From an uncultured Desulfobulbia bacterium (GTDB lineage: Bacteria; Desulfobacterota; Desulfobulbia; Desulfobulbales; CG2-30-60-27): a stretch of 64,000 nt of DNA. The notes under the pieces are model-generated. The model was not told the DNA's origin, did not search any database, and was given only the letters and a program-made list of their open reading frames with translations. Shown here one piece after another: positions 10,031 through 55,098 of this stretch. The stretch spans positions 57,456 to 121,455 of the forward strand of contig CAYUCH010000001.1 in the NCBI GenBank assembly GCA_964443295.1, given 5' to 3'. The number at the start of each line of letters is the position of its first letter. The stretch's first letter is position 1. The translations under genes were made by a program, and so were the position numbers.

Positions 10031-10534
10031 CCCCCTCTCTCTAGTATAATTTTTTATACCACCACAACATACTGATATCACACCATATTTTTCACTCGCC
10101 ATCCCTCCCGCCTCAAAAAATTCAAAAAATTGTACTCTACTTTTTCGTGCACACGACCAGCAGCCCCCATAACATACTGAATTTACAGTGTAAAAAAATA
10201 AAGCCAAAGAAAATCAGCGCTTGGCACGCATCTTGCTTTTCTAATGTGCAATTAAGAAGCTAAGAAGCAATTCTTACTCCTTTCTCCTCATGTGATGGTC
10301 GATCTCTATCTCCCCATGGATCGGCCATTACTGTTTCTACCTCCCCAATTTTCTCAATTACCCAACGTAATAATTTTTGAATTCTTCCTGATGAGAAAGT
10401 ATAAAAAATGCTATTTTCAATACGCAGCACGTAATTATCTAAAAGGCATCCTCCTCAACCTCAAGACCACGAAACAGGCAGATGCCCGAACATAACCTCT
10501 TGGATATTTTGCAGGCACTTCAAAACTTTTAACT

Positions 10535-39271: not shown

Positions 39272-39742
39272 ATGAGAAATCATGTGCTAAGGCCACTTTA
39301 TGTGGCTTTAGGAGTTGTGGCTCTGATCCTGTTGGCCCGGAGCATGATTGTTCCCCCTGATTTCAAGGCACAAAGAGGAGATTTCACCTTTGGTTTTCAT
39401 CGTGCAAGCAACGTGGATGAATGGAAAGCCGTCCCGATAAAATACCGTGGTAAAGAATCGTGTGCAGAATGCCACGAAGAAAATGTAGAAGAGCACGCAT
39501 CATCTCCTCACTCCACCATTGAATGCGAAAATTGTCATGGGCCAGCCATAAACCACCCTGACAATCCAGAAGCACTGGAAATTGACAAAAGCAGGGCTCA
39601 ATGCCTGCGATGTCATGCAGACCTTCCCTATCCGTCAAGTCACCGATCTGAAATAGCCGGCATAGACCCCGCAGATCATAATGCGTCGTCACAGTGTATA
39701 GAATGCCATCAACCCCATAATCCGGATCTGGAGAATATGTGA
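39272..39742 (+). CDS. membrane-anchored tetraheme c-type cytochrome
   Basis: Has an N-terminal anchor helix and four CxxCH motifs (CAECH, CENCH, CLRCH, CIECH). A strong RBS (AAGGAGG) precedes the start. Confidence 0.85.
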   Translation: MRNHVLRPLYVALGVVALILLARSMIVPPDFKAQRGDFTFGFHRASNVDEWKAVPIKYRGKESCAECHEENVEEHASSPHSTIECENCHGPAINHPDNPEALEIDKSRAQCLRCHADLPYPSSHRSEIAGIDPADHNASSQCIECHQPHNPDLENM

Positions 39743-40512
39743 TGAGTTGCTCGCGAAGGAAATTCCTTAAGAATACCCTTGCCGGGGCCGTTGCATCTTC
39801 ACTGCCCCTTTCTGCCTTTAAATTATTAAGTCCTGCTGAAGTTAAAGCAGCCATTGGCGATGCCAAGGTACGCTGGGCTTTTCTGGTCGACACCTATAAG
39901 TGTGTCGGCTGTGGCATGTGTGTCAAAGCATGTAAAAGTGAAAATGATATTCCATACAACATTCCCGTCACCAGAACGTGGGTTGAAAGATATGTCGTGA
40001 AAAAAAACGGCGAGACCTTAATCGATTCGCCCGATGGTGGCCGAGAGGGGTATACCACTCCTACAATCCACGGAGAAAAAATAGATCCTGACGATATTGT
40101 TAAAGGTTTTTTTGTCCCCAAACTATGCAATCAGTGTGAGACACCGGCCTGTGTACAAGTGTGTCCGGTGGGTGCTACCTACCAGACCCAGGATGGTGTT
40201 GTTTTAGTCGATCGGAGTTGGTGTATCGGCTGTGGGTACTGCATCATGGCCTGTCCATTTGGAGCACGCTTTTTCCATCCGATTCACAAAGTGGCAGAAA
40301 AATGTACCTTTTGTTACCACCGAATTTCCAATGGCATGACCACCGCTTGTGTGCAGGGATGCGCATTTGGCGCTCGACAAATCGGAAATTTGAAAGATCC
40401 CGAAGATCCCGTTACCAAAATAGTAATGACAGAAAGAGTCTCGATTTTAAAAGATGAGTACGGCACCAAACCGCAGGTTTTCTACATCGGCTTGGATGCA
40501 AACGTGAGGTAG
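39739..40512 (+). CDS. Tat-exported 4x[4Fe-4S] ferredoxin subunit (NrfC/PsrB/DmsB family)
   Basis: Has the twin-arginine signal SRRKFLK and four Cys clusters (CVGCGMCVKAC, CNQCETPACVQVCP, CIGCGYCIMACP, CTFCYHRI...CVQGC). Confidence 0.85.
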   Translation: MMSCSRRKFLKNTLAGAVASSLPLSAFKLLSPAEVKAAIGDAKVRWAFLVDTYKCVGCGMCVKACKSENDIPYNIPVTRTWVERYVVKKNGETLIDSPDGGREGYTTPTIHGEKIDPDDIVKGFFVPKLCNQCETPACVQVCPVGATYQTQDGVVLVDRSWCIGCGYCIMACPFGARFFHPIHKVAEKCTFCYHRISNGMTTACVQGCAFGARQIGNLKDPEDPVTKIVMTERVSILKDEYGTKPQVFYIGLDANVR

Positions 40513-40519
40513 ATACATT

Positions 40520-41767
40520 ATGGAAGAGTTAATACACGTACATGGTATGGAATGGACGGCCAAGGAGCTCTTTACCTACCCTAATGAGTTCATCTATTGG
40601 AGTATTCAGATTGTAATGTACCCGTATATGACCGGGCTGGTGGCAGGAGCTTTTGTCCTTTCGTCCCTTTATCATGTTTTTGGTCAAAAGGACCTGAAAG
40701 ACATAGCGAAGTTTTCACTTGTTTTTTCTTTGGCCCTGTTGCCGGTGGCCATGATGCCGCTTATGTTGCATTTGCAGCAACCCTTGCGTGGTATGAACGT
40801 AATGTTCACACCCCATTTTACTTCTGCCATTGCTGCTTTCGGTATTGTCTTTACCTTTTACGCTATGATTGTTTTAAGTGAAATCTGGTTTGTCTACCGA
40901 GAATTTTTTGTCCAACAGACAATTGCCCTGAAAGACGATGATACCACCAGCGGCACTTTAAAACGCTGGACCTACCACCTTTTTTGTCTTGGCGCCTACA
41001 ACACTGATGAAGACTCCATCAGCAAAGACAAAAAAGCCGTTACAATACTTGCCGCCATCGGTATACCGGTTGCCTGCTTCCTGCATGGGTATGCCGGTTT
41101 CATTTTTGGCTCTGTTAAAGCAAACGCACTCTGGATGTCACCTCTTATGCCGGTTATCTTCATTATGTCTGCCGTTGTTTCCGGCATTGCTCTTTGCATG
41201 CTGACATATATTATCATTATGGAATTCAAACATTTTAGTACCGCTTTTGCCAAGGGCAGGGGAGATGAATCGGTACAATTAATCCGCGGTGTAGAGATGG
41301 ACGTCATTACTAAGGCTTCCAAATATCTCATTGGTTTCCTGGTTGCGGCTATCAGCCTGGAGCTGCTTGACTTAATTTTCAGGGGGTATACCGCCATGAA
41401 GTCGTGGGATATCCTCCGAACGGTCATGTTTAAAACTGACTTTATAAAAATCTTTATCTTGCAGTATGGCCTGGGCAACTTATTGCCATTTGCCCTCCTT
41501 TTGATGCCTAAACTCACCATTAGACGCACCGTTGTTGCTTTGTTGCTCATTCTCTTCGGTGTCTTTATGATGCGTTGGAATGTTGTCATAGGCGGGCAGG
41601 CATTTTCTCTGTCATTTGCAGGATATATGCATTACCACATGCCAATTATCCCCCATCACCTTGAAGCATATAAAGAAGGCTTACTTGGTGCTCTGACAGT
41701 TATGGCGACACCTTTTCTGCTTTTCTGGCTTATAAACAAATTTGTCCCGTCTTTACGCTACGATTAA
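40520..41767 (+). CDS. NrfD/PsrC-family quinone-interacting membrane subunit
   Basis: 415 aa, about 10 TM segments, directly downstream of the FeS subunit. Confidence 0.8.
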   Translation: MEELIHVHGMEWTAKELFTYPNEFIYWSIQIVMYPYMTGLVAGAFVLSSLYHVFGQKDLKDIAKFSLVFSLALLPVAMMPLMLHLQQPLRGMNVMFTPHFTSAIAAFGIVFTFYAMIVLSEIWFVYREFFVQQTIALKDDDTTSGTLKRWTYHLFCLGAYNTDEDSISKDKKAVTILAAIGIPVACFLHGYAGFIFGSVKANALWMSPLMPVIFIMSAVVSGIALCMLTYIIIMEFKHFSTAFAKGRGDESVQLIRGVEMDVITKASKYLIGFLVAAISLELLDLIFRGYTAMKSWDILRTVMFKTDFIKIFILQYGLGNLLPFALLLMPKLTIRRTVVALLLILFGVFMMRWNVVIGGQAFSLSFAGYMHYHMPIIPHHLEAYKEGLLGALTVMATPFLLFWLINKFVPSLRYD

Positions 41768-41821
41768 AATGTTTATCGTCAGTTAGCATTCTTCTACATA
41801 TCTATTTGATCCAAAATAAAA

Positions 41822-41855
41822 CTGGGAACCTGCTGCAAAGTCAGCAGGTTCCCAG
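41822..41855 (+). terminator. perfect 14-bp stem hairpin after the NrfD gene (terminator-like, no clear U-tract)
   Basis: CTGGGAACCTGCTG-caaagt-CAGCAGGTTCCCAG, read directly. Confidence 0.5.
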
Positions 41856-41978
41856 GGAGAGGTAATGATATAGCTTTATATAACAAAGAGTATTGGCTAA
41901 TCGTATGCATGCCTTTCAGGGTGTTTTACTCTAGCTGAAACACCATTCCATCAACTCAAACAAACCTTTTCTTCAAAA

Positions 41979-43007
41979 ATGAAATTCACTGTCCGGCTTT
42001 CAAGCTATTTCTTTACTTTTTTGCTCCTTTTTAATATCCCTGCTGTCCATCCCTTTCCTTTCCGTGAGATTTCCGTCGGTAATCCTGTACCAAATGTAAA
42101 TCTACAAAGCTTCAATGAGCACAATTCGATAACTTTTTCCCGATACAAAGGCAAACCGTTCATCGCCGTTTTTTGGGGAGCTGACCTGACGGAAAAATTG
42201 AATCGATCATCACACGTTCTAACAGGTATGGAAAGCATGGCCACTTTCCTGGCAGAGCGTGATATCCAAGTGCTTTCTGTCAACACCCAGGGTGATAATC
42301 GGGATATAATCGATGAAGTAGTCAGGCTATCCCAAAGCAGCTATCCCGTATATCTGGATCAGGACCGAGAAGCCTACAGGCTCCTCGGTATCTTTGTTAT
42401 GCCAGCAATACTATTGATTGATAAGGACGGCAATATCGTAGCCGGAATGGGATATTCTCACAATATTATCGATCAACTTAAGGGTGCTGTTGAAATAATG
42501 CTGGGAGAAAAAACAGCAGAACAGGTACAGGCCGATCTACAACCCAAAATGATTGACAAGTCTTCTCGAGAAAAAAGTGGGAACCGGCATCAAAATTTAG
42601 GCATGGTTTTATTAGAAATGGGAATGACGGATAGAGCCATCTCAGAATTCAAGAAAGCACTGGAACTCAATAATTCTCTCAGCCAGCCCCATATAGAGCT
42701 TGGCTGTCTCTATGTTGAAAAGAATCAGTTGATTTTGGCAGAGGTTGAACTCTCTAAAGGACTTGAACTTGCACCCGACTCTCTTCGCGGGAGGACCTGT
42801 GAAGGAATACTCAAAATGGAAAGCGGCCATTTAGACGATGCCGCGAAAGACTTTAAATCAATTCAGGAGATAACACCATCAAGCCACGAACCACACTACC
42901 TTCTCGGCAAGGTTTATGAGGCCCAAAACATGCTAGACAAGGCCATTGTCGAGTATAAACAGGCATATGTACTACTCAATCGCAGGCGAGCTGACATAGA
43001 CGAATAA
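41979..43007 (+). CDS. secreted redoxin(TlpA)-fold protein lacking the CxxC motif, fused to TPR repeats
   Basis: Has a signal peptide and a redoxin-like N-terminal domain. The expected WxxxCxxC position reads FWGADLTEK, with no Cys. The C-terminal half has TPR-like repeats. Confidence 0.55.
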   Translation: MKFTVRLSSYFFTFLLLFNIPAVHPFPFREISVGNPVPNVNLQSFNEHNSITFSRYKGKPFIAVFWGADLTEKLNRSSHVLTGMESMATFLAERDIQVLSVNTQGDNRDIIDEVVRLSQSSYPVYLDQDREAYRLLGIFVMPAILLIDKDGNIVAGMGYSHNIIDQLKGAVEIMLGEKTAEQVQADLQPKMIDKSSREKSGNRHQNLGMVLLEMGMTDRAISEFKKALELNNSLSQPHIELGCLYVEKNQLILAEVELSKGLELAPDSLRGRTCEGILKMESGHLDDAAKDFKSIQEITPSSHEPHYLLGKVYEAQNMLDKAIVEYKQAYVLLNRRRADIDE

Positions 43008-43091: not shown

Positions 43092-44555
43092 CTATTCCGG
43101 TTCATCATGGCAAAGTGCACAATCCTGGGTGATGGTATCACCGTTTTCATTCTCATGTTCTTCGTCATGACATCGCCAACAACCATACCCATCATCGGCA
43201 TATTGATGCCCCAGATGGCTTTTATAGGTACCCCAATGGATATCCATTCTCGGCCAAACATTGTTCAAATACGTTTCAAGGAGATATTCCCCGGTATTGC
43301 GGATCTCAGCCTCAAATTTCTGAGCTACTTCCGGGTCTCTCTCTTTCTGCATGGCCAATAACTTACCAATCATCTGGGCTTGGGCCTCGTCTCTATCGGT
43401 GTACCCAAACGTGAGAACAGCGAGACTGTCTTCACGGATACCTGGAATTTCACCATTGATCCGCTTACTCAAGAGACCAAAATCAACTCGCTCTTCCGGC
43501 ATATCATAGACATGGGTGGGTCGGTTATGACAATCGATGCAGTCCATAATCCTCCAACCGCCACCATGACCATCGTCCTCAGCAGGTTCATGTACTTCGA
43601 TGTCAGCCTTGACAAATTCATCTTTAGAACCGTCCGGCCTTTTCACCCTGACCTTGCCAATCTCGGTTCGCTTCTGATCTGCAGCAAGATAGCTCACCTC
43701 AACATCCTGGCTGACATGCCAGTGAATTCCTTCAAAAGCATCGGTAACAGGATTCCGCCCACCAATATGGAGTGCAATATCAGCTACTTCGGGATTCACT
43801 TGGTCTTCATCGCTGAAACTTGTAAAACTCTTGACTTTTTTGCCATGGAATTTTTCAGGCCAATGGCACTCTTCGCAGATGTCCGGGGCGGGGCGCAGAT
43901 GTTCTACCGGAGCGGCAATGGGTCGGGAATATGTATCTGCCACCACTGCAACAACCTGACGCAATCCTGAAATCTTTGCTTTTACAAACCAACCTGCCCC
44001 GGAACCAATATGACACTCAACGCAAACAACTTTCGCATGGGGAGAGCGCTGATACACCTCATATTCAGGCTCCATAACGGTATGACAAACCTTGCCACAG
44101 AAATAGGGGGAATCGCTGAAATGATACCCTTCATAAGCGACAAAGGCCAAAATACAAAAATTTATCACTGTTAATACGATAAATCCAACGACCCAGCGAC
44201 GATGCTTATGGTCACTTAAATTTATTTTAAGATGCTCCCTGGATATACCATATTTATACCATTTCCTTCGTCGCAGATAAGCTGCAAAAGGAATTAGCAG
44301 CAAACCGGTTATCATCCCACCAGGCAAAATAAGATATGTGAAAAATCCAGCATATGGATTGTCGAAATACCCAAACAAATCGACAAGCGTCCCTATTACC
44401 AATAAGGTGGTGCTGACTGTAGTAATGGTGACACCCATCAGGCCCAGAGGCGAGCGCCACATGCCACGAATTATATTACTCCATGGACTCCGAGACAGTT
44501 GTTCAGAGTCCTCCCCTTTATTTTCTTCTTTTTGATTTGTCTCATTTTCAGACAT
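43092..44555 (-). CDS. inner-membrane multiheme c-type cytochrome (3 TM helices plus a NapC/NirT-like heme domain)
   Basis: Five CxxCH motifs (CVECH, CEECH, CIDCH, CWRCH, CALCH) plus one CxxxCH (CGKVCH). Three N-terminal hydrophobic helices. The architecture is reminiscent of ImcH-type quinol-oxidising cytochromes (from memory, not aligned). Confidence 0.75.
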   Translation of the reverse strand: MSENETNQKEENKGEDSEQLSRSPWSNIIRGMWRSPLGLMGVTITTVSTTLLVIGTLVDLFGYFDNPYAGFFTYLILPGGMITGLLLIPFAAYLRRRKWYKYGISREHLKINLSDHKHRRWVVGFIVLTVINFCILAFVAYEGYHFSDSPYFCGKVCHTVMEPEYEVYQRSPHAKVVCVECHIGSGAGWFVKAKISGLRQVVAVVADTYSRPIAAPVEHLRPAPDICEECHWPEKFHGKKVKSFTSFSDEDQVNPEVADIALHIGGRNPVTDAFEGIHWHVSQDVEVSYLAADQKRTEIGKVRVKRPDGSKDEFVKADIEVHEPAEDDGHGGGWRIMDCIDCHNRPTHVYDMPEERVDFGLLSKRINGEIPGIREDSLAVLTFGYTDRDEAQAQMIGKLLAMQKERDPEVAQKFEAEIRNTGEYLLETYLNNVWPRMDIHWGTYKSHLGHQYADDGYGCWRCHDEEHENENGDTITQDCALCHDEPE

Positions 44556-44678
44556 AAACAGCCTCCTCCCACATTTTTTTTTAACTTAGAGCTTCAAGAA
44601 TTTTTCAGCACGTATAAATTACTCACAGATTCAGAGAGCACATTTCGCCCTGGACTCGTGACAATTTCAGTATAAGGC

Positions 44679-44695
44679 TTGCAATATAAATGCCA
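44679..44695 (-). promoter_or_regulatory. sigma-54 (-24/-12) promoter upstream of the multiheme cytochrome gene
   Basis: The minus strand reads TGGCAT-ttata-TTGCAA. GG/GC spacing is canonical. It lies about 125 nt upstream of the ATG at 44555. Confidence 0.7.
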
Positions 44696-44820
44696 GACAG
44701 GACTTTTTTTTCATACTTCTTCTCAACCACCCCAAGTTGAGACACAAATCGCCTGTCTTACGACCTTTTTTCACACCCCTTACAGCCGCCACCTCCTTTT
44801 CATTGGTTCCGTGAACACCC

Positions 44821-44870
44821 CATTGTTGCAACAATTATGTTGCAACACACCTGTCGCATGCAACACATGA
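44821..44870. promoter_or_regulatory. TGCAACA repeat cluster (candidate enhancer/UAS)
   Basis: TGCAACA occurs at 44827, 44841 and 44859. The first two lie inside TGTTGCAACA palindromes. The cluster is 130-180 nt upstream of the sigma-54 promoter at 44679..44695. Confidence 0.5.
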
Positions 44871-44876
44871 AACACT

Positions 44877-46673
44877 TTAGCTCCCTGCTACAACAGGTAG
44901 GTCCAGCAACACTGTAGTATGATTTCCAGCCACACTATCTACGGAAAGTTTGCCGCCATTTTCTTCCACCAGAAATTTACTGATTGTCAAACCGAGTCCT
45001 GTGCCACCATCCTTGCCTTTGGTTGAGAAAAATGGCTCCATAAGACTGGAAAGCACTTCAGGCTCCACACCAACTCCCCAGTCGGTAACCGAACTCCGCA
45101 ACCAATTACGACCTTCGGAATAAACAACTTCCCCGTGTACTTCTAATTTCTTTTGCTCGTCTCTGGCCGGGAATCGCTCGTTAAGGGCATGGCGAGCATT
45201 CATAAATACATTTAAAAACACCAAATGCATATGCTCTTTATTGACATGCACTGCCGGCAACTCAATTGGGAAAGCCACGTCCAAAATTATTCCATCATTT
45301 TTTAAGAGTTGGTCCACAAGGGAAAGTGCTTCTCCCACCACTGTAGCCATAGGAACAGAATCCTTCGCTTTCCCTTGCTCCCGTGCTAAGTATTGAACTT
45401 GGTGCAACACTGTTGCCGCACGCTCACCATCACGGACCATATTGCTGAGCAATCCCACCTTGGCACTATCTTTTTCTTGTTGACCAAATTCATCCAGCAA
45501 AACTTGGCCATAGTTAATTATGCCGTTAATGAGGTTAGAAACTTCATGAACTACGCCAGAACAAAGCTCGCCAATTGCCGCCAAGCCGCACACTCTAATC
45601 GTCAGATCGGAAAGGCCGGCGTTTTGATCATCACCTTTCTGTGCTACAACAAGACAGAGCGAAGGAGCTCCACATTCAGGAAAAGAAATTTTAAACCGAA
45701 TACGTTTACCAAATCCGTCTGGCAGAACGTGAAAGGACGAGGACTCATCCGCTTGCAAAGCCTTAACAAGCTGAGACGCCTGATTTGATCCTATATCATT
45801 GAAAAACAAAGAAACAACTGAAAAACCATGGATGACATCGAGGTCACGGCCTAAAAAACGTGCCGCTGCTTCATTAGCCTTAAGCACCTCTCCCTGGGCA
45901 TCCACCAGGAACAGGGCATCATCAGTGCTACTGAAGAGCAATTCTGCCTGAGCTTGATACGTTACAGCTTTTTCAGAACTATCCAGCCATTGCTCTTGCA
46001 ATTGGCTGTGTGTTGACGCCAACAATGAAAGCTCATCAAAAGCTTGACTGTCGTACTGCAAAGGTGCCTTGCCTGAATCATCTTTTTGTATTTGGCGGGC
46101 AATACCAATGATAGGCACGGCGAGCTTTCTATACCATAGGACCAGGAGAAAACTAAAAATACAAAGAACAATGGCAAGTCCACCGATCACAACATTTTGA
46201 AAACGAACCAACGTCGCTTTGGCCTGGCCGACGATAATCCGGTCAAACCGCATAAGACGATCACCCAGAAGTCGCATTTTCACGTTGAGTTCATTGGCTA
46301 GACTTTGCTTGTCTGTCTCTGCTTCAATTTTTCGCAAAAGCAGTACAATCCCGGAGAGATCGACTTGATTGATAAAGGTTAATTTATATTCACCTGGAAT
46401 CAGGCTATTCTCTAATAATCCGGAAAGGGCGGTATTTAATGATTCAATTTCTTCTACAATGGGACCCAATTGTTGATAGCGACCAGCCAGTAGCGACTCG
46501 GTTACATGGTCTCGAATGGTGGCAAACTGAAAAATGAGTTTTTCACTTTGGTCAATGATTGAGTCATACCTGCCGGCCAGAGAGTATTGACGCACTCCCA
46601 TCATTAATACGACGCACAAGATAACGGCCGCTGTCAAGGTCGTGCCATACAGGGTTTTTCTCAGTGAAAACAT
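44877..46673 (-). CDS. membrane sensor histidine kinase
   Basis: Has an N-terminal TM, an extracytoplasmic region, a second TM and a PAS-like segment. H-box is HEVSNLINGIINY. The HATPase domain carries GTGLGLTISKFLV. Its ATG directly abuts the ftsH stop (TAAATG). Confidence 0.85.
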   Translation of the reverse strand: MFSLRKTLYGTTLTAAVILCVVLMMGVRQYSLAGRYDSIIDQSEKLIFQFATIRDHVTESLLAGRYQQLGPIVEEIESLNTALSGLLENSLIPGEYKLTFINQVDLSGIVLLLRKIEAETDKQSLANELNVKMRLLGDRLMRFDRIIVGQAKATLVRFQNVVIGGLAIVLCIFSFLLVLWYRKLAVPIIGIARQIQKDDSGKAPLQYDSQAFDELSLLASTHSQLQEQWLDSSEKAVTYQAQAELLFSSTDDALFLVDAQGEVLKANEAAARFLGRDLDVIHGFSVVSLFFNDIGSNQASQLVKALQADESSSFHVLPDGFGKRIRFKISFPECGAPSLCLVVAQKGDDQNAGLSDLTIRVCGLAAIGELCSGVVHEVSNLINGIINYGQVLLDEFGQQEKDSAKVGLLSNMVRDGERAATVLHQVQYLAREQGKAKDSVPMATVVGEALSLVDQLLKNDGIILDVAFPIELPAVHVNKEHMHLVFLNVFMNARHALNERFPARDEQKKLEVHGEVVYSEGRNWLRSSVTDWGVGVEPEVLSSLMEPFFSTKGKDGGTGLGLTISKFLVEENGGKLSVDSVAGNHTTVLLDLPVVAGS

Positions 46674-48560
46674 TTAGGCAGCACTCGGCATATGGGAACA
46701 ATGAGCTGCAGCCGGGCATGTGCTGCAATCGTGATGTTCGTCTGTCACATCATGTTCCTTGTCTTTTTCTTTTTTAGCCTGTTTTTTCTGGGTGCAATCA
46801 AAAATAATCTGCAACTCCTCACTGTCTAACGTCTCGGTCTGTAAGAGAATCTCAGCAAGGTTACTCAAAAAATCCTTTTCATTCTCCACAATGGCAACTG
46901 CATCTCTATAGCAACTTTCCACAAGGTCTCTTACTTCTTTATCAATACGCCGAGCGGTTTCTTCACTGTGAGCCATAAGCGCTGTCTGATCACCTAAAAA
47001 ACCACTGGAATCCTTAGCATAGGACAAAGGCCCCATAGCCTCACTCATCCCCCACTTACAAACCATTTTTGTGGCAATATCCGTAGCGCGCATAAGATCA
47101 TCCTGGGCTCCGGTGGTCTGCTGATGCAAAATCACCTCTTCTGCGGCCCTGCCACCCATAAAAATAATGATCTTATTCCGCAGATACTCTTTGGAATAGG
47201 CATGCCTGTCTTTGAGAGGCAATTGCTGCGTATGCCCCATGGCCTGTCCCCGGGGAATAATAGTAATTTTATGCAGAGGATCTGATTCGGGCAGATAGCG
47301 TGCCATAATGGCGTGACCAGCCTCATGGTATGCCATGGTCCGCCGGTCCTTCTCGGTAATCACCAATCCCTTCCGTTCAACACCCATCAATATTCGATCT
47401 TTGGCTGCTTCAAAATCCGGCAGCTCAATAACATCTTTCCCTTGGCGTGCGGCCATAAGCGCAGCTTCGTTTACAAGGTTGGCAAGTTCCGCTCCGGTAA
47501 AGCCCGGTGTGCTTTGAGCGACACTATGCAGGTCTATATTTTCTGCCAAGCTGACCTTTTCGGAGTAGACCTCAAGAATTTTAAATCGCCCCTTCACATC
47601 AGGAGCCAAAATATTTATTTGCCGATCAAAACGGCCGGAACGGAGTAAAGCCGGATCCAGAATATCAGGCCTATTTGTTGCGGCAAGTACAACGATGGTA
47701 TCTTTCGAACTAAATCCATCCATTTCTACCAAGAGAGCATTCAGTGTTTGACCGCGTTCATCCTGGCCACCGCTCATTCCTGAACCTCGATGCGCCCCTA
47801 CGGCATCAATTTCATCAATAAAAATAATACTGGCTGGATTCTTTTTAGCCTCCTTAAAAAGATCACGAACCCTGGAAGCGCCAACCCCCACAAACATTTC
47901 AACAAAATCAGAGCCACTGAAGCTATAAAAAGGCACGCCAGCCTCACCGGCAATAGCCCGGGCGAGAAGTGTCTTTCCTGTCCCCGGGGGGCCCTGCAGC
48001 AAAACCCCTTTGGGAATAGAAGCGCCAATGCGGCTGAAATGCTCTGGATTTTTAAGAAATTCGATGATCTCCAAAAGCTCTTCTTTTGCCTCGGGTATCC
48101 CCGCCACATCTTTAAAGGTTACCTGTTTTTCGCTGGCACTATATTTAATCACCTTATCTTTGGTGAATTCACTTTCATCCTCTCCACCTTGCTGCTTGCG
48201 GAATAAATAAATCCAAATTCCAAGCACAAGTAACATCGGAATGATAATCGAAATGGCATTCCACAGAATAGAAGACCGATCAGGACTGGCGGAAAAGGTG
48301 ACATCTTTCTCTATTAACTTTGGCAGCAAACTTCCTACTTCAGGTGAAAATGTGGCAAACTCCCGGTCAAACTCATCGGTAAACCGGATGTCTCCCCCCT
48401 GCAATTCAACCTCGGCAATCTTTCCTTGCTCCAATTTAGTAAGGAACTCAGTATATGGCAGGCTTTCCAATTTGTTTTCCAGGTTCCAGAAAACAACTGC
48501 TGATATTCCAATACTGGCTAAAATGAGGAGAATAAAGAGATTGCGAATGAGAATAACCAT
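46674..48560 (-). CDS. ftsH: ATP-dependent zinc metalloprotease FtsH (with a Cys/His-rich C-terminal tail)
   Basis: Carries Walker A (GPPGTGKT), the SRH, and the zinc motif HEAGHA. The C-terminal tail reads [26 protein letters not shown]. Confidence 0.9.
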
Positions 48561-48648
48561 GAGCGTTCCTTAAAAGGCCGGGATCCCAAGTGAACAATTA
48601 CGTTCCCGACTGTGGGTTGTATCGCGTCAAAAGAGTACGACACTTTTG

Positions 48649-48665
48649 TTGCAATGAGAATGCCA
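48649..48665 (-). promoter_or_regulatory. sigma-54 (-24/-12) promoter upstream of ftsH and the kinase
   Basis: The minus strand reads TGGCAT-tctca-TTGCAA, about 90 nt upstream of the ftsH ATG. Confidence 0.65.
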
Positions 48666-48761
48666 CCATGTTGTATATATTTCTAATCAAATTTACTCAT
48701 GATTACCAGAAATTATCACGGTTATTTAACAACACATATTTCCACTGTTGCTGCTACCCTT

Positions 48762-48802
48762 AAAAAAAAAGCCGGTGAAGGGTTTGCCTACCCCTCACCG
48801 GC
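48762..48802 (-). terminator. intrinsic terminator after the small-gene array
   Basis: The minus strand reads GCCGGTGAGGGG-taggcaaa-CCCTTCACCGGC, followed by T9. Confidence 0.85.
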
Positions 48803-48836
48803 TCAAAATAAGAACCAATTTTTGCTTGCCGCTTAT

Positions 48837-49082
48837 TTAACCACCGAGTACTGCTTGAACCCAGGCTGATACGAAATTAAGCGGATTTCCTGCGCTCATA
48901 AGGCCGCCCAGTAAGAAAAGCAGCCCCATGGTACCAACCACACCGCCAACAGCGAGGATCGCGATAAGACCAACCTTACTGACCTCAAGATCCACTTCGG
49001 TGTTTTCGCCAGCATGGCTTAGTACACCGGTGTTGTTGTGTTCCCTAGTTTTTGCGATAGCAACTGATGATGTATCTTTCAT
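48837..49082 (-). CDS. small membrane protein, paralog 4 of the tandem array (81 aa, most divergent)
   Basis: RBS AAGGAG. The C-terminal block GLLFLLGGLMSAGNPLNFVSAWVQAVLGG aligns with the three upstream paralogs. Confidence 0.7.
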   Translation of the reverse strand: MKDTSSVAIAKTREHNNTGVLSHAGENTEVDLEVSKVGLIAILAVGGVVGTMGLLFLLGGLMSAGNPLNFVSAWVQAVLGG

Positions 49083-49108
49083 TATATTTCTCCTTAAATA
49101 ATAGAATA

Positions 49109-49333
49109 TTAAATACCCAGAACGGCGCTAAACCAATCTTTAACAAATGCCAGTGGACCACCACTACTTATCAATCCACCGACCAAGCAGGCCACACCCC
49201 AGACGCCTATAAGAGCGGCGACAAAACCAATAACTGTTATTCCGACCCGAGAGACTTCAACATCAACTTGTCCTGCAGACTGGGTAGCTGCTTTTATCTC
49301 GGTGTTAGCTTGTATCGGGTTGTCCTGGGCCAT
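49109..49333 (-). CDS. small membrane protein, paralog 3 of the tandem array (74 aa)
   Basis: RBS AGGAGG. The C-terminus is SRVGITVIGFVAALIGVWGVACLVGGLISSGGPLAFVKDWFSAVLGI. Confidence 0.75.
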   Translation of the reverse strand: MAQDNPIQANTEIKAATQSAGQVDVEVSRVGITVIGFVAALIGVWGVACLVGGLISSGGPLAFVKDWFSAVLGI

Positions 49334-49377
49334 TTTATCCTCCTACACTCAATCTTTCTCAATATTTCAAGCTGTCA

Positions 49378-49596
49378 TTAACCCATAACAGCGCCGAACC
49401 AACTTTTTACGAATGCAAGTGGGCCACCACTTTGAACAAGGCCACTTACCATACATGCTACTGCCCATAGTCCGATAAGACCTGAAGCAACAGCAAATCC
49501 GCCGACACCGATCTTAGAAATTTCTGTTTCCACATGGGAAGCATCTTGGGTGCGGGCATTAATTTCAGTTTTTGTTTTATTGGTTGCAGTGTTCAT
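49378..49596 (-). CDS. small membrane protein, paralog 2 of the tandem array (72 aa)
   Basis: The internal ATG at 49596 has RBS AAGGAG and gives MNTATNKTK... The C-terminus is SKIGVGGFAVASGLIGLWAVACMVSGLVQSGGPLAFVKSWFGAVMG. The longer track ORF overlaps paralog 1. Confidence 0.75.
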   Translation of the reverse strand: MNTATNKTKTEINARTQDASHVETEISKIGVGGFAVASGLIGLWAVACMVSGLVQSGGPLAFVKSWFGAVMG

Positions 49597-49643
49597 GTTG
49601 ATCTCCTTTTCAAGTGAATTATTGGGTCGCTCGAGTTCTATAA

Positions 49644-49856
49644 TTAACCGCCAATTACGGCGCTCATCCATGTACCGATGAAGGACAGAGGGCCACCACT
49701 CTGAACCAGCCCACTTACCAGACATACAATCCCCCATACTCCGATCAAACCGCCGGCGATGAACATCGCTGTAATTCCAACCTTGCTCAGCTCACCATCT
49801 AAAGTAGCGTCTGTTGATTTCGTGATTGCTTTAGTTTGAGTTGTTGCGCTTGTCAT
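49644..49856 (-). CDS. small membrane protein, paralog 1 of the tandem array (70 aa)
   Basis: RBS GGAGG. The C-terminus is SKVGITAMFIAGGLIGVWGIVCLVSGLVQSGGPLSFIGTWMSAVIGG. Confidence 0.75.
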   Translation of the reverse strand: MTSATTQTKAITKSTDATLDGELSKVGITAMFIAGGLIGVWGIVCLVSGLVQSGGPLSFIGTWMSAVIGG

Positions 49857-49906
49857 GTTTTTATCCTCCGTTAGAAGTGTTTTTGTTGCTTTGTGAAAAG
49901 TCTATA

Positions 49907-49923
49907 TTGCAATGGCAATGCCA
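49907..49923 (-). promoter_or_regulatory. sigma-54 (-24/-12) promoter upstream of the small-gene array
   Basis: The minus strand reads TGGCAT-tgcca-TTGCAA, about 50 nt upstream of the ATG at 49856. Confidence 0.7.
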
Positions 49924-50284
49924 AAAAGAAATAAATATTTAAAGAAACCAGATAACACACTGAAAATATTATATTATTTTTTTTATATTTTTTTGGCACA
50001 CTATTGTCCTTTTTTCACTCAAACTAGCTAACATACTTAAATAATTATACTTTTTCAGATATAGCTAACAAGAAGCTCAGAAACTCCGGCGTGGAGAGAA
50101 AATCACCAGGCAACTTTCAGGTCTATATAAGGAAAGGGAGACTAAAACGGGGTGGGTTTGAACGTAACGCAACACTCATTTTGATGAAAAAGATAGGGTG
50201 TGAAGATTGTCAGCAACGGCACAAATATTTGTAATTACTACAAAAATAATAATTATTTCAATTTCACCACATCAAAACCATGCC

Positions 50285-50340
50285 ACATTTGCAACACATG
50301 CAACACAACACAGGTGTTGCAAATGTGTCGCAACAAACAT
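50285..50340. promoter_or_regulatory. TGCAACA/TGTTGCA repeat cluster (candidate enhancer/UAS)
   Basis: TGCAACA at 50290 and 50299, its complement TGTTGCA at 50316, and CGCAACA at 50329. The reverse complement aligns with the 44821..44870 cluster (GTTGC[A/G]ACA ... TGCAACAC..CTGT). Confidence 0.5.
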
Positions 50341-50345
50341 ACGCG

Positions 50346-52178
50346 CTACACTTTTACAGCGTTTAATTCGATTTTGTAGGTGTGCATTTTTCTATAAAGA
50401 GTACTGCGGTCCATTCCAAGAATTCGTGCAGCCTTTGCCTTGTTTCCACCAGCTTTATGCAAAGCAGCAAGGATTCGTTGAGGTTCATCTAATCCATCAT
50501 CCACAGTTTCTTCAATAACCTCGATCTTCTTCTTAGCTGTATCGCTGATGTGGCGCCGCTCTACTGGATAAGATCGAGAATCTTCCTTTATGGATGATTG
50601 AGCAAGTTCTCCGTGCCGTATTTCTTCAGGGAAATGATCCAAGGTTAAAGTAGAGCCTTCACACAGAATACAAGCTCTTTCCATAACGTGTTCAAGCTCT
50701 CGAACATTACCAGGCCATCCAAAATTTCTGAGAGCTTCCATGGCCTGATCTGAAATCCCACTAATTTCCCGACCTAGCTTCTCCTGGAATTGCGACAGAA
50801 AATGGGCCACAAGGATTGGAATCCCCTCATATCTTTCACGTAGAGGGGGTAATTTAATTTCCATAACCCGCAAACGGAAAAAAAGGTCCTCACGAAAATC
50901 ACCATCTAAAACTTTCTTTCTCAGGTCTGCATTGGTTGCGGCAACAACTCTCACGTCTACCTGAATGGGACGGTCACGTCCGACTGGATAAAAAGACCGC
51001 TCCTGGAGAAATCGTAACAGCCGGAGTTGCATGCGGGAAGAGATGTCACCTATCTCATCGAGAAATAATGTACCGCCGTCGGCCTGCAGGATCCTTCCCA
51101 TCCGATCTCGATCTGCTCCGGTGAATGATCCCTTTTTATGACCGAACAACTCACTCTCAAGAAGATCATCGGTAATTGCTGCACAATCAACCTTGACCAA
51201 TGGCTTATTATGCCGTGGACTTTCCGCATGCAGCGCCTCAACAGCCAACTCTTTGCCGGTCCCTGATTCACCTGTGATCAGTACAGTTGTATCGACCTTA
51301 CCAACATTTTCTATTAGAGAATAAACAGACTGCATAGCCGGGCTCGAGCCGACATATCGATGAAAACGAGATCGTTTGGCCCTGTTACTGCTTTCCTCAA
51401 GACTTGTTACATCTCGGGCAACAAAAACAACCCCCTGAAACCCACCACTTCCATCCTGGAGCGGCGCAGCATTGAGACTGAGAATTTTTTTACCACCATC
51501 TGGCCGAGAACACTCAACACGATGCTCACGAACCTCCTCACGGGTGCGCAACACTTTCTGGGCATCTTTCAGGCAACAATTTCGCATCCCCTCAGGAAGC
51601 ATCTCAAGTGAAATGGGGGTATTACTTTTCAATCCCATGCCGCCCATCCACTCTTTGGCCATCTCATTGAAATGCACAACCTGCATTTCATTATCCACAG
51701 TGATTATGGCATCACGCACTGATCGAAAAATCGTATCAAGATATTGCCGATAATGCTCATTTTCCTTCTCAAGCCTCTTTTTCTCTTTTTGCAAATGCCA
51801 TTGCTTGAGGGCCTGTCTGGTAAATTTGAGCAGCGTTTCCTTATTGACGGGCTTGGGAATATAATCAAAGGCACCTAAGCGAACAGCCTCGGCAGCTGTT
51901 TGCAAATTTGGAAAACCAGTGATCATCACCACTGGACATTGCACATTGGCCGCGCGAATTTCACCCAACAGATCGGTACCGGAAGTGCCTTCGAGAACAA
52001 TATCGCTGATGATGAGATCAAACTCATGTTCATGAATAGCTGCCAAAGCCTCCTGATAGGTAGCAGCCGTGCGAACCGGCCCGTAGCCTTCCCTTGTAAG
52101 GAACATCTCAAAAGTAAGGCGAAGGCTCTCTTCATCATCAACAATTAATATGCTGGTTGAATCTTTTTTTGCATCCAC
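50346..52178 (-). CDS. sigma-54-dependent response regulator (REC-PAS-AAA+-HTH, NtrC family)
   Basis: The receiver carries ILIVDDE ... IISDIVLEGTSG. The AAA+ domain has Walker A GESGTGKE and a GAFTGA-type loop (KKGSFTGA). The C-terminus is a Fis-type HTH (AARILGMDRSTLYRKM). Confidence 0.9.
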   Translation of the reverse strand: MDAKKDSTSILIVDDEESLRLTFEMFLTREGYGPVRTAATYQEALAAIHEHEFDLIISDIVLEGTSGTDLLGEIRAANVQCPVVMITGFPNLQTAAEAVRLGAFDYIPKPVNKETLLKFTRQALKQWHLQKEKKRLEKENEHYRQYLDTIFRSVRDAIITVDNEMQVVHFNEMAKEWMGGMGLKSNTPISLEMLPEGMRNCCLKDAQKVLRTREEVREHRVECSRPDGGKKILSLNAAPLQDGSGGFQGVVFVARDVTSLEESSNRAKRSRFHRYVGSSPAMQSVYSLIENVGKVDTTVLITGESGTGKELAVEALHAESPRHNKPLVKVDCAAITDDLLESELFGHKKGSFTGADRDRMGRILQADGGTLFLDEIGDISSRMQLRLLRFLQERSFYPVGRDRPIQVDVRVVAATNADLRKKVLDGDFREDLFFRLRVMEIKLPPLRERYEGIPILVAHFLSQFQEKLGREISGISDQAMEALRNFGWPGNVRELEHVMERACILCEGSTLTLDHFPEEIRHGELAQSSIKEDSRSYPVERRHISDTAKKKIEVIEETVDDGLDEPQRILAALHKAGGNKAKAARILGMDRSTLYRKMHTYKIELNAVKV

Positions 52179-52227: not shown

Positions 52228-53778
52228 TCAGCCTTCCTCTGCATCAACATACTCACTAGTGTTGTCTACCTTTCTACCATCAACTGGAATATCCACAGTT
52301 ATTATGGTGTAATTATCCAGCACCGAATCCACCCGCATAACTCCACCATGATCACGAACAATTCCATGGGTAATAGACAGTCCTAGCCCGGTACCTTCCC
52401 CCGGTGGTTTGGTGGAAAAAAAAGGGTCAAAAAGTCGCTCTAAAATACCTTGAGGCATCCCCTTTCCCCAGTCCATCACCATGGTTCGCACATGCTCCTC
52501 ACCATCAACATCCACTGCGTGACAGCTTATGCGCAATTTCTTTTCCGGATCCTGCTGGGGATATCGTTCGTTCAAAGCGTATCGACTGTTGCTGAGCAAA
52601 TTTAAAATAACCTGCTGAAGTTGCTGGGCATTACCATGCAGTGGGGGCAAATCATCTTCAATTTCCACCGCAAAATTAATACCGTCTTTTTTTATCTGGT
52701 GCTGCACCAAAGTCAGACTGTCTTGAATCACTGCAGACATTTCAACATTGTGATCTTCATGCTCACTCTCCCGGGCAAAAGATAACAATTTATAAATGAT
52801 GGAGGATATCCGTTCTCCTTCTTTAATAATCCGTTGCAACAGGTCATTTTTTGTCACATCCTCACCGACATCGTCCATGAGAACCTGGGCATAATTAATT
52901 ATGCCGTTAATGGGGTTATTTATCTCATGCGCAACACCTGCGGCCAACTCACCGATTGCCGCCAATTGCCCGGTCCGCATAGCTTCCAGTTTGCGAACCT
53001 CTTCCTTGGTGAGATCCCGGGCAATTAACATGATCTGGCGAACCTCGCCATTCAGGTCCGGAACCGGTGAGACGGTGAGCAAATACTCTCCAAACAGACC
53101 AGGAAGTTTGGTCTCCATGATTTTTCGAGAACGGGTTAAAAGTAATTCTTCCAAAGGACATTTTATGTGGGGAAGTCGACCACCATGGATTATCTGACAA
53201 ACGCCATATCCAATAATTTCTTCTCTGGTCTTGCGAGCTGCATGGATAGTGGCTGGATTGACATCGCTAATTTTACCCTCGGGTGTAACAATGAGAATGG
53301 GATCCTGAACAGCGTTAAAAACCTCCCCCCACCCTGGCTGGGAAGGGCCAATATACTGTTCCCGAAATTTAAACTCCGTTACGTAAAAACCAAGATGGCG
53401 CATACCATCACGTAATTTATCCCAGGTAACGGGCTGAACGATGAAATCGCTGGCCCCGGCCTCAAATGCTCGGTCCACGGAAGAATCATCATCATCAGGG
53501 ACAACGAGAATGATCAAACTTCTTTCCGCATTGGGAAGTTTCATTATCTGGCTGCAGAGATAATAGCCGCTGGTATCCGGCAAGTTGCCATCCAGAATTA
53601 CTACATCGGGCTGATTTCGTATAAAAGATGCCAGGGCGGATTCACCATCTTCCACATCTTCTACGTTATAGCCACTAATTTCTAAAAATCGACGGATCAT
53701 AAGCCGCTGCTCACGATCGGAGTATGCAACTAAAAACTGTGACCAATTTTTTTTGGTCTTAGAAGGACTTTTTTCCAT
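52228..53778 (-). CDS. hybrid sensor kinase with an N-terminal receiver (REC-PAS-HisKA-HATPase)
   Basis: The receiver is VVILDGNLPDTSG, the H-box is HEINNPINGIINY, and the HATPase domain carries GTGLGLSITHGIV. Confidence 0.85.
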   Translation of the reverse strand: MEKSPSKTKKNWSQFLVAYSDREQRLMIRRFLEISGYNVEDVEDGESALASFIRNQPDVVILDGNLPDTSGYYLCSQIMKLPNAERSLIILVVPDDDDSSVDRAFEAGASDFIVQPVTWDKLRDGMRHLGFYVTEFKFREQYIGPSQPGWGEVFNAVQDPILIVTPEGKISDVNPATIHAARKTREEIIGYGVCQIIHGGRLPHIKCPLEELLLTRSRKIMETKLPGLFGEYLLTVSPVPDLNGEVRQIMLIARDLTKEEVRKLEAMRTGQLAAIGELAAGVAHEINNPINGIINYAQVLMDDVGEDVTKNDLLQRIIKEGERISSIIYKLLSFARESEHEDHNVEMSAVIQDSLTLVQHQIKKDGINFAVEIEDDLPPLHGNAQQLQQVILNLLSNSRYALNERYPQQDPEKKLRISCHAVDVDGEEHVRTMVMDWGKGMPQGILERLFDPFFSTKPPGEGTGLGLSITHGIVRDHGGVMRVDSVLDNYTIITVDIPVDGRKVDNTSEYVDAEEG

Positions 53779-53887: not shown

Positions 53888-54868
53888 TTATCCACCTATT
53901 GTAGCCATGGATTTTTTAACCGCCGACCCTTGAGTTGCCTCTGCCTCAAATCCATTCTTTGCCCTTTGAGCCACACAATGTCTGAGAATATCACCAATCT
54001 CTCTGTCCGTTTTTTCACTCCTGAGCAATTGCCTGAGATCGAGAACACCATCATCGTAAAGACAGGTTTTCAATTGACCGCGTGAAGTTATGCGCAACTT
54101 ACCACAGCTACCGCAGAAAGTACGTGAATATGCTCCTATAATTCCAACTTTGCCTAAAAATCCTGGAACCTTAAGAATTTTGGCTGTACCCGAAACCCCT
54201 TCGGTCAATTCCAGGTCTGGATATCGCTGTTGAAGGCGATTAATAATTTCCGCCGATTTCCAACCTTCTCCCACCCCGGAACAACCACCGGAAAATGGCA
54301 TCTGCTCAATAAACCGCACTTCAATGGGCTGGCTGCGTGCTAATTCTGCAAGATCAATGATCTCATCATCATTGATGCCCTCTTGAATGACTGAATTCAC
54401 CTTGAGGGGGATATCCAAAGCAAGAGCCTGCTTTATAGTCTCCAGGACTGCTTGCATTTGGTCGCGCCTGGTTATGGATTTAAAGCGTTCGGGCTTGAGG
54501 GTGTCCAGGCTTACATTCAATCCGGAAATGCCCAGTTTTTTTAGGCCATCAAGCTCTGGCGCCACAGCAACTCCGTTGGTCGTGAGGCTGAGTATTTCAA
54601 GACCGGGCATGGATTTTAGCCTTTTCAAAAAAACCATGAGTCCTTTGCGGACAAAAGGCTCCCCCCCAGTTATCCTTACTTTATTAACTCCCATGCTGAC
54701 AAATATGCTCACCAGCCGTTCGAGCTCATCTAAAGATAAAATTTCTTCCCGCGGGAGAAAATCAATCCCCTCAGCCGGCATACAATACACACAACGCAAA
54801 TTGCACCTGTCGGTAATGGCAAGTCTAATATATGTAATGTCCCGACCATGGTTGTCGATCAATTGCAT
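53888..54868 (-). CDS. moaA: GTP 3',8-cyclase (molybdenum cofactor biosynthesis protein A)
   Basis: Carries the radical SAM motif ITDRCNLRCVYCMP, the C-terminal cluster CGSCGKLRITSRGQLKTCL, and a GG tail. The start is uncertain (54868 or further upstream, up to 54976). Confidence 0.9.
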   Translation of the reverse strand: MQLIDNHGRDITYIRLAITDRCNLRCVYCMPAEGIDFLPREEILSLDELERLVSIFVSMGVNKVRITGGEPFVRKGLMVFLKRLKSMPGLEILSLTTNGVAVAPELDGLKKLGISGLNVSLDTLKPERFKSITRRDQMQAVLETIKQALALDIPLKVNSVIQEGINDDEIIDLAELARSQPIEVRFIEQMPFSGGCSGVGEGWKSAEIINRLQQRYPDLELTEGVSGTAKILKVPGFLGKVGIIGAYSRTFCGSCGKLRITSRGQLKTCLYDDGVLDLRQLLRSEKTDREIGDILRHCVAQRAKNGFEAEATQGSAVKKSMATIGG

Positions 54869-55098
54869 ACCATCGTCTTTAGGCGGGGTATTCTTATTTT
54901 CCGTTTTTAAAACCACAAAAAACTCCTCTAAATTTATTAGACGCAACAACCTTCTTTTTTGACATATTTCATGCAATACCGCAAGGTATCGCAGTCATAT
55001 GGTTGCCCCTACATTATTCTTCAATAAATACATGTTCCCTGGTATTACATAAATTGATACAATGTATCCATCTTCAATGAAATTCGGGAATACAGGCC

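Follow-up and report, generated by a model that had tools for sequence, protein, structure and literature searches.

Do three near-identical -24/-12 elements place a set of membrane protein genes under one sigma-54 activator? The question is raised by a 64,000-nucleotide (nt) stretch of DNA from an uncultured Desulfobulbia bacterium (contig CAYUCH010000001.1 of assembly GCA_964443295.1), here called the window. It is metagenome contig sequence with five identical copies in public assemblies. A first-pass annotation had read three minus-strand sites with GG-N10-GC spacing and a shared TGGCAT/TTGCAA core, and had joined a small-gene array, an ftsH-histidine kinase pair and a multihaem cytochrome gene into one putative regulon. 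All three sites are present. P1 precedes the small-gene array (49907-49923; TGGCATtgccaTTGCAA), candidate site P2 precedes ftsH and the histidine kinase gene (48649-48665; TGGCATtctcaTTGCAA) and P3 precedes an ImcH-type cytochrome gene (44679-44695; TGGCATttataTTGCAA). On balance, we favour reading the locus as an enhancer-dependent sigma-54 regulon of a Desulfobulbales bacterium, probably of the Desulfurivibrionaceae, that controls a conserved membrane module.

We examined the placement and the frequency of the sites. P1, P2 and P3 lie 50, 88 and 123 nt ahead of minus-strand start codons (first small gene ATG 49856, ftsH ATG 48560 and cytochrome ATG 44555, respectively), in agreement with the 50-125 nt given originally. 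The predicted transcription start sites are near 49897, 48639 and 44669, leaving 5' untranslated regions of about 41, 79 and 114 nt. The string TGGCAT-N5-TTGCAA occurs three times in the window against 0.07 expected, and none of 100 dinucleotide-preserving shuffles reached three. Relaxing it to TGGCAY-N5-TTGCW, which all three sites match with no mismatch and canonical GG-N10-GC spacing, gave four matches against 0.26 expected. The single extra match is at 10222-10237 on the plus strand. All four strict-consensus sites are intergenic and share the orientation of the downstream gene. Other sites were ranked with a sigma-54 position weight matrix (PWM), an approximate reconstruction of the published consensus (Barrios et al. 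1999) whose scores serve for ranking only. Every remaining site of the window scoring at least 13 falls within coding sequence.

These numbers bear on the idea that the three matches are functionless chance occurrences. Only the general AT-richness of the spacers speaks for it. Conservation of P1 and P3 across genomes, described below, effectively refutes it for those two sites. We give the idea practically no weight, and the original claim that such a set is unlikely to be chance holds. We also considered whether the three sites derive from a duplicated segment. Beyond the 12 specified bases the flanks of P1, P2 and P3 are unrelated. Hence, the sites are not copies of one segment, and this origin was ruled out.

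Two further sites in the window were noted. The site at 10222-10237 (TTGGCACGCATCTTGCTTT; PWM 18.7) is the best sigma-54 consensus of the window. The spacer that holds it is 680 nt long, and about 470 nt separate it from the downstream gene for glucose-6-phosphate dehydrogenase (10710-12269). We found no Rfam match and no convincing small open reading frame downstream of it; its product may be a long leader or an unannotated small RNA. A minus-strand site inside ftsH (47290-47305; TGGCACGCTATCTGCC; PWM 15.1) encodes residues just past the HEAGH zinc site. It recurs at the same codons in a related locus, L006, and is a coding-constrained false positive.

To follow the sites across genomes, we collected the contexts of divergent small-protein relatives and of 80 cytochrome relatives, and annotated these loci by phmmer with the window proteins. 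Loci carry L numbers; L007 is Desulfobulbaceae bacterium A2 and L179 is the complete genome of Thiovibrio sp. JS02. In a PWM scan of the module loci, a site scoring at least 12 was found just upstream of the first small gene in 25 homologous arrays. These belong to 20 loci besides the window: L006, L009, L011 (four arrays), L013, L015 (two), L017, L024, L025, L026, L027, L029, L030 (two), L031, L032, L036, L039, L040, L042, L043 and L178. The distance to the start of the open reading frame is mostly 39-101 nt. The background of such sites elsewhere in those loci is about 4e-5 per nt and strand. Throughout, TGGCA(C/T) and GC(A/T) are invariant at fixed spacing, and the other bases vary. The L178 counterpart of P1, TGGCATTGCCCTTGCA, differs by 1 base. 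When the window is aligned with L006, identity is concentrated in the P1 element and the first ~30 nt of the leader, whereas the rest of the 490-nt spacer has diverged (in the window 489 nt, 49857-50345, minus strand). We conclude that P1 is almost certainly a sigma-54 promoter. We read it as ancestral to the module.

The closest relative that we obtained is GCA_054043525.1, represented by L006 and L175/L176; its cytochrome is 84% identical to that of the window. In L175/L176, P3 reads TGGCATTTTTATTGCAA, with one substitution, and lies 66 nt upstream of the orthologous cytochrome start. Alignment with L175 gave near-perfect identity over TCCT.T.TGGCATTT.TATTGCAA. The rest of the spacer (in the window 321 nt, 44556-44876, minus strand) aligns poorly and has a 47-nt indel. 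Conservation of P3 was seen in this sister genome only. The scan of module loci found a cytochrome gene with its own sigma-54 site only in the window and in the sister genome. P3 is very probably a sigma-54 promoter.

The same elements could be read differently, as mainly sigma-70 promoters in which TTGGCA or CTGGCA serves as the -35 hexamer and the likeness to -24/-12 is incidental. A weak sigma-70-like match, CTGGCA-16-TATACT, overlaps P3 (9/12 positions), and TTGAC(A/T)-type promoters drive the same genes in relatives. Against this, sigma-70-like matches in the region number 12, compared with 14.7 expected by shuffle. The TATACT is not kept in L175, whereas both sigma-54 elements are. The P1-type sites of the 20 loci hold their GG and GC at fixed spacing while other bases vary, and an activator gene with its repeats adjoins. 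We regard the sigma-70 reading as very unlikely.

A sigma-54 activator, or bacterial enhancer-binding protein, had been proposed at 50346-52178. The assignment of this minus-strand gene is borne out by the domains of its product: REC (with Asp59), PAS, AAA+ (PF00158, 225 bits) and a Fis-type HTH (HTH_8). Upstream of it, at 52228-53778 on the same strand, lies the gene for its presumed partner, a soluble hybrid kinase with REC-PAS-HisKA-HATPase architecture. Orthologues of the activator adjoin small-gene arrays in L006, L009, L011, L029, L031, L036, L040, L042, L043 and L178. The hybrid kinase is paired with the activator gene in seven of these (L006, L011, L029, L036, L042, L043 and L178). A MoaA-type radical-SAM molybdenum-cofactor gene (53888-54976, minus strand) lies directly upstream of the hybrid kinase gene. 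It is adjacent only in the window and L006, and we set it aside as probably not part of the module.

Two repeat clusters, here named as putative upstream activating sequences (UAS), accompany P1 and P3. UAS-A (50290-50335) is a cluster of TGTTGCA half-sites that comprises the palindrome TGTTGCGACA, the element TTTGCAACA and two more copies of TGTTGCA. It begins 10 nt past the activator stop codon. UAS-B (44824-44865; TGTTGCatGCGACAggtgTGTTGCAACAtaatTGTTGCAACA) holds two perfect 10-bp palindromes 14 bp apart. It begins 11 nt past the kinase stop codon, 134-169 nt upstream of the P3 -24 element. Perfect TGTYGCRACA occurs in the window at 44824, 44838 and 50326 only. Likewise, the UAS-A and UAS-B regions are the only 80-nt stretches of the window with at least four GTTGC/GCAAC. 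UAS-B is the densest such cluster, with five in 80 nt, a density reached in 0/200 shuffles.

The repeats recur in relatives. Those of UAS-B are kept upstream of P3 in L175. GTTGC repeats also cluster between the orthologous activator gene and the array promoter in L009, L011, L029, L031, L040 and L042. Their distance from the downstream -24 element is ~85-340 nt (mostly 120-220 nt), and the background density is 0.25 per 100 nt. In L006 and L036 the repeats take the form of GTCGC variants. Repeats are absent from loci with a different, shorter activator. Since the repeats co-vary with activator type, we assign them to the activator at 50346-52178 as its presumed binding sites. We also asked whether the repeats are mere terminators of the upstream genes. 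A hairpin flagged in UAS-A (50335-50315) has 3 G-C pairs. The 10-bp palindromes are too short for such a role, and the motif occurs in direct and inverted copies in seven other genomes; this reading was ruled out. With conserved promoters and a common type of repeat cluster, P1 and P3 are likely to form one activator regulon.

The position of P2 is different. In its favour, the 12-base core is identical to that of P1 and P3 and is correctly oriented. The spacer around it measures 276 nt and starts with a strong terminator, and its coding-sense strand yielded no sigma-70-like site. Hence, ftsH needs a promoter of its own. The probability that the exact core occurs in the spacer by chance is about 1e-4 or below, as estimated from the 0.07 expected per window; at a loose threshold of PWM at least 15 it is about 0.02. 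We conclude that P2 is probably a sigma-54 promoter of recent acquisition.

Several observations, besides the approximate nature of the matrix and the sigma-70-like match over P3, weigh against a single sigma-54 regulon. P2 is not conserved in L006 and L178, the two nearest relatives that have the region. At the P2 position the best site of L006 is TGGCACTAACTATCCT, which has TGGCAC but lacks GC at -12 and scores 7.6, and the L178 ftsH spacer contains no sigma-54 site. The 450 nt upstream of P2 contain only 2 GTTGC/GCAAC, which is near background. P2 has no repeat cluster, so the motif match is what speaks for its membership of the regulon. UAS-A, at ~370-410 nt upstream of P1, is unusually distant compared with the repeats of other genomes. 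The assignment of repeats to the activator is correlative. The sigma-54 contact loop of the activator (residue ~347) reads GSFTGA and not the canonical GAFTGA. Finally, a sigma-70-like promoter (10/12 positions) lies ~120 nt upstream of P1.

One alternative is a regulon of two members. Here P1 and P3 are real and P2 is recent, fortuitous or silent, so that ftsH and the kinase gene are expressed by read-through from P1 or from an unrecognised promoter. Absence of P2 from L006 and L178 and of a GTTGC cluster upstream of it would fit, as would the result of the module-loci scan, in which no locus other than the window had a sigma-54 site before ftsH. In addition, the block GGTAATCAT...TTAGAA..ATATACAA is kept in L006 but the adjacent -24/-12 element is not, which hints at an older, different control element. 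The exact 12/12 core in the right orientation argues the other way, as do the terminator before P2, with its 15-bp stem, and the lack of a sigma-70-like site on the strand. Moreover, activators of this class can work from distant sites or from solution. We consider two members fairly unlikely.

The conserved block was looked at in its own right. On the minus strand of the window it spans 48670-48715, upstream of P2, and in full reads GGTAATCAT..G..AATTT..TTAGAA..ATATACAA; its counterpart is L006 11370-11405. Inspection by eye found no convincing IHF site or sigma-70 promoter in it. No relative closer than L006/L175 was obtained for checking P2. A metagenome scan with the kinase as query returned no relatives. 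With FtsH as query, the scan returned mostly ~45-56% identical FtsH proteins, presumably housekeeping, and one truncated close match without upstream DNA.

Alternatively, P1, P2 and P3 could all be sigma-54 dependent and answer to separate activators or signals. In line with this, the repeat cluster is missing at P2, the unit downstream of P2 encodes a second kinase, and at least two types of activator adjoin the module in Desulfobulbales relatives. Related deltaproteobacteria such as Desulfovibrio vulgaris are described as unusually rich in such activators (PMC4641369). Conversely, the only two GTTGC/TGTYGCRACA clusters of the window belong to P1 and P3, and a scan of part of the window genes, those around the locus, turned up only one activator gene. 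Separate activators are improbable in our judgement. Returning to the single sigma-54 regulon, the proposal is likely to hold for P1 and P3; for P2, which is unconserved and lacks a cluster, it does not reach beyond the motif. Whether P1, P2 and P3 together form one activator regulon is evenly balanced.

What would such a regulon produce? The small-gene array encodes four proteins on the minus strand. Small protein 1 (49644-49856, 70 amino acids) is polar at its N-terminus and carries a single membrane helix; it also has an SGGP kink and ends in a short helix. Small proteins 2 (49378-49596, 72 amino acids), 3 (49109-49333, 74 amino acids) and 4 (48837-49082, 81 amino acids) are its paralogs. 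The unit ends at a strong intrinsic terminator (48769-48804, minus strand) with a 15-bp stem, 9 G-C pairs and a T9 tail. Terminator-like hairpins with T runs occur at the matching position in L006, L009, L011, L012 and L014. None of the small proteins matched Pfam or NCBIfam. A word-seeded search found 85 relatives, and an exhaustive profile search found 433 cluster representatives, the best 150 of which are 65-114 amino acids long. The few that are named are 'hypothetical protein' entries from Desulfobulbaceae genome bins. In an AlphaFold model of small protein 1, a kink at SGGP separates a long helix from a short C-terminal one; the mean predicted local distance difference test score is 63.5. 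The model fits a single-pass membrane protein and is otherwise uninformative. An extreme case of array amplification is found at 5278-10458 of L011, where 12 tandem small-protein genes precede ftsH and four arrays carry their own sigma-54 site (5278, 6443, 8201 and 9632).

The gene downstream of P2 encodes an FtsH paralog (46674-48560, minus strand). It has two membrane helices, an AAA+ domain, an M41 protease domain with HEAGH at residue 412 and a Cys-rich C-terminal tail. Matches were to TIGR01241 (757 bits, cut-off 600), PF01434 (227 bits) and PF00004 (151 bits). The tail (46674-46760) carries the motif C-x(20-30)-C-x-x-C-P-A-x-x-x-C-x-H, within which the window has FDCT. The same tail was found in L006, L178, L009, L011, L036, L037, L032 and L043. 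It was not found in FtsH of the variant loci L024, L027, L030 and L039 or of Thiovibrio. The tail could be a cytoplasmic metal, Fe-S or redox-sensing element.

Directly abutting ftsH is the gene for a membrane histidine kinase (44877-46673, minus strand) with sensor, PAS, DHp and HATPase domains. The full kinase occurs in the window and in L178. In most relatives (L009, L011, L029, L031, L032, L035, L036, L037, L040 and L043) its slot is occupied by a protein of ~305 amino acids. Its similarity to the window kinase is confined to residues 1-230 (membrane sensor) and 370-425 (DHp/His box) of the latter. Hence, it corresponds to the kinase without PAS and ATP-binding domain.

The gene downstream of P3 encodes an inner-membrane multihaem cytochrome of 487 amino acids (43092-44555, minus strand). 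Three N-terminal membrane helices (hydropathy segments 36-62, 69-94 and 119-144) are directly followed by a CX3CH motif (CGKVCH, residue 153). Five CXXCH motifs are at residues 178, 227, 339, 459 and 479. There is a NapC/NirT-like region (PF03264, 27.9 bits, cut-off 24.1), and the NrfH match is weak. A PDB sequence search with the cytochrome returned no match. Full-length relatives with 35-42% identity were found in Geobacteraceae, Desulfuromonadales, Syntrophus, Anaeromyxobacteraceae, Acidobacteriota and Ignavibacteriaceae. We call the protein ImcH-type because its three helices, CX3CH, CXXCH set, NapC/NirT-like region and taxon spread match the published ImcH family. A plus-strand gene group at 39272-43007 converges on the cytochrome gene. 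It encodes a c3/c7-like cytochrome (156 amino acids), a 4Fe-4S protein (257 amino acids), an NrfD-like membrane protein (415 amino acids) and a TPR/AhpC-like protein (342 amino acids). In L009 and L011, too, the module is followed by genes for a similar set of cytochrome, NrfD and Fe-S proteins; in L177, NrfD is encoded next to the cytochrome. A search of the whole window against Rfam found four tRNAs only.

The first-pass annotation had linked the membrane cytochrome, the ftsH-kinase pair and the small proteins. Comparative genomics agrees, since synteny of small protein(s), FtsH paralog and cytochrome recurs independently. The recurrent Desulfobulbales module comprises hybrid kinase, activator, 1-12 small genes, FtsH paralog, kinase-like protein and cytochrome. 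It was found in this or a closely similar form in L006 with L175, L009, L011, L029, L036, L042, L043 and L178. Parts of it are present in L031, L032, L035, L037 and L040, where a gene is missing, the contig ends early or ftsH lies elsewhere in the locus. A variant in L024, L027, L030 and L039 has an activator, reversed ftsH, two small genes and two cytochromes. In L015 and in these four variant loci, cytochrome or ftsH directly follows small genes with a sigma-54 site. Hence, sigma-54 dependence of cytochrome or ftsH is not unique to the window. Gaps within the operons are 0-70 nt in L029, L036, L178 and others.

A compact form, small gene-ftsH-cytochrome(s) without an adjacent activator, occurs in L007, L012, L014 and L179. 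The three genes lie close together or overlap one another in Desulfobulbaceae bacterium A2. In Thiovibrio sp. JS02 (L179, 5665-11443), a small-protein gene lies upstream of ftsH and two ImcH-type cytochrome genes. Outside the order, Desulfuromonadales genome bins L051 (9462-11413) and L066 (1149-3076) have a small-protein gene directly upstream of a cytochrome homologue. Where there is just one small gene and the activator is not next to it (L007, L012, L014, L051, L066 and L179), the promoters are sigma-70-like and of the TTGAC(A/T) type. In L051, L066 and L179 these take the form TTGAC(A/T)-N16/17-T-rich, and a sigma-54 site is absent.

A possible history can be outlined from these comparisons. 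In the ancestral state, sigma-54 would have driven a small-gene unit that ended at a terminator. Behind this unit would have come ftsH, a kinase-like gene and the cytochrome gene, in one operon or split differently. The P3 spacer, with enhancer and promoter, would then have been inserted between kinase and cytochrome in the common ancestor with GCA_054043525.1. Subsequently, ftsH would have gained its matching -24/-12 element in the organism of the window alone. Relatives would express the same genes as single operons, by read-through from the small-gene promoter, or from sigma-70-type promoters.

Sigma-54 holoenzyme forms a closed complex at -24/-12, and opening requires ATP hydrolysis by an upstream-bound AAA+ activator. 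In the mechanism that we propose, the soluble hybrid kinase (52228-53778) would phosphorylate Asp59 of the activator, and the membrane PAS kinase (44877-46673) may contribute. The Fis-type HTH, whose predicted target is TGTTGCAACA-containing DNA, would bind GTTGC half-sites and TGTYGCRACA palindromes at UAS-A and UAS-B, as their co-conservation suggests. The activator would oligomerise and use ATP to remodel sigma-54 holoenzyme bound at -24/-12. P1 would yield four paralogous single-pass membrane proteins in abundance, from a transcript that ends at the strong terminator, and P3 an ImcH-type quinol-oxidising cytochrome. P2, without a clear enhancer, would probably drive the FtsH paralog and kinase as a dedicated protease and feedback sensor. 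P1 and P3, and probably P2, would fire together. In response to a redox or respiratory cue, we infer, the system probably adjusts the inner-membrane route for electron export. Such a cue would be compatible with the PAS domain that each of the three signalling proteins carries. The coordinated membrane or respiratory remodelling suggested in the first-pass annotation is likewise conjectural.

How does this arrangement compare with known systems? In NtrB/NtrC regulation, a phosphorylated REC-AAA+-HTH activator binds palindromic sites 100-400 bp upstream of TGGCAC-N5-TTGCA, for example at glnAp2. The window likewise combines a REC-AAA+-HTH activator with clustered palindromic sites upstream of two of its three -24/-12 elements. 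Its activator scored 432 bits against TIGR01818 (the NtrC equivalog in NCBIfam), below the 559-bit cut-off. Hence, it is NtrC-class by architecture and not an NtrC orthologue. It also differs from NtrC in its extra PAS domain, its GTTGC-repeat DNA motif and its association with respiratory and membrane rather than nitrogen genes. PilS/PilR with sigma-54 gives very strong expression of pilA, a terminator-closed gene whose product is a short membrane protein with one helix. PspF with sigma-54 controls a set of small membrane proteins (psp) as a membrane-stress response. As in both systems, a sigma-54 activator would drive genes for small membrane proteins in the window, and the array, like pilA, ends at a terminator. 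In contrast to PilA and Psp proteins, the small proteins here have no type IV pilin leader or Psp domains, and the module also encodes a cytochrome as well as a protease.

Among systems studied by experiment, BccR of Geobacter sulfurreducens is the nearest parallel. This REC-AAA+-HTH sigma-54 activator switches on cbcBA, an operon for an inner-membrane cytochrome, when the redox potential drops (10.1101/2021.04.15.440034). In both cases the activator gene adjoins a unit with a -24/-12 element. Two genes for hypothetical proteins, GSU0597 and GSU3489, open the cbcBA operon, and its last product is a quinone-linked multihaem cytochrome of the inner membrane; small proteins and a cytochrome occur together here too. 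Induction of cbcBA follows a respiratory or redox signal, and one is inferred for the window. The differences are that the cytochrome here is of the ImcH type and not CbcBA bc-type, that targets are spread over three promoters, that the module includes an FtsH paralog and tandem paralogous small membrane proteins, and that the activator has an extra PAS domain.

In ImcH itself (GSU3259 of G. sulfurreducens), three membrane helices at the N-terminus run directly into an atypical CX3CH; then come a NapC/NirT-like region and CXXCH motifs (PMC4251993, PMC6295460). The window cytochrome has the same three helices and CX3CH, and a NapC/NirT-like region then CXXCH, a likeness that rests on published family features. 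The taxa with homologues also match: Geobacterales, Syntrophus, Anaeromyxobacter, Acidobacteriota and Ignavibacteria. The window cytochrome has 6 haem motifs, compared with 7 in Geobacter ImcH and 6-10 across the family. In Geobacter, imcH forms a transcription unit of its own and its expression is constitutive (10.1101/2021.04.15.440034; PMC4251993, PMC6295460). In contrast, the homologue in the window has a predicted activator-dependent sigma-54 promoter and belongs to a module with small proteins and FtsH. Within the literature library searched, no paper named both FtsH and ImcH. The small protein-FtsH-ImcH-type cytochrome module has no family annotation and is apparently unreported.

A sigma-54 promoter with an adjacent activator is routine, and the regulatory finding is solid annotation rather than discovery. 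Its main value is the recurrent module of the Desulfobulbales, the order containing cable bacteria, and the extension of the small protein-cytochrome pair into Desulfuromonadales. The predicted TGTYGCRACA/GTTGC activator site is specific enough for whole-genome searches for regulon members. In Geobacter, ImcH is the entry point for high-potential extracellular electron transfer. A switchable ImcH homologue with candidate partners and a dedicated protease offers a handle on cytochrome assembly, regulation and turnover. Our most tentative proposal, which we think unlikely as it stands, goes further. In it, the small proteins would be an unrecognised family of ~70 amino acids, serving ImcH-type quinol oxidases as dedicated subunits, either partners or modulators. 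The sigma-54 redox switch would determine how abundant they are, and turnover of small proteins or cytochrome would fall to the dedicated FtsH paralog, whose conserved cytoplasmic tail (C...CxxCPAxxxC) would sense metal or redox state. If this were true, the module would be a new self-contained system that rebuilds the inner-membrane gate for electron export in Desulfobulbales and some Desulfuromonadales.

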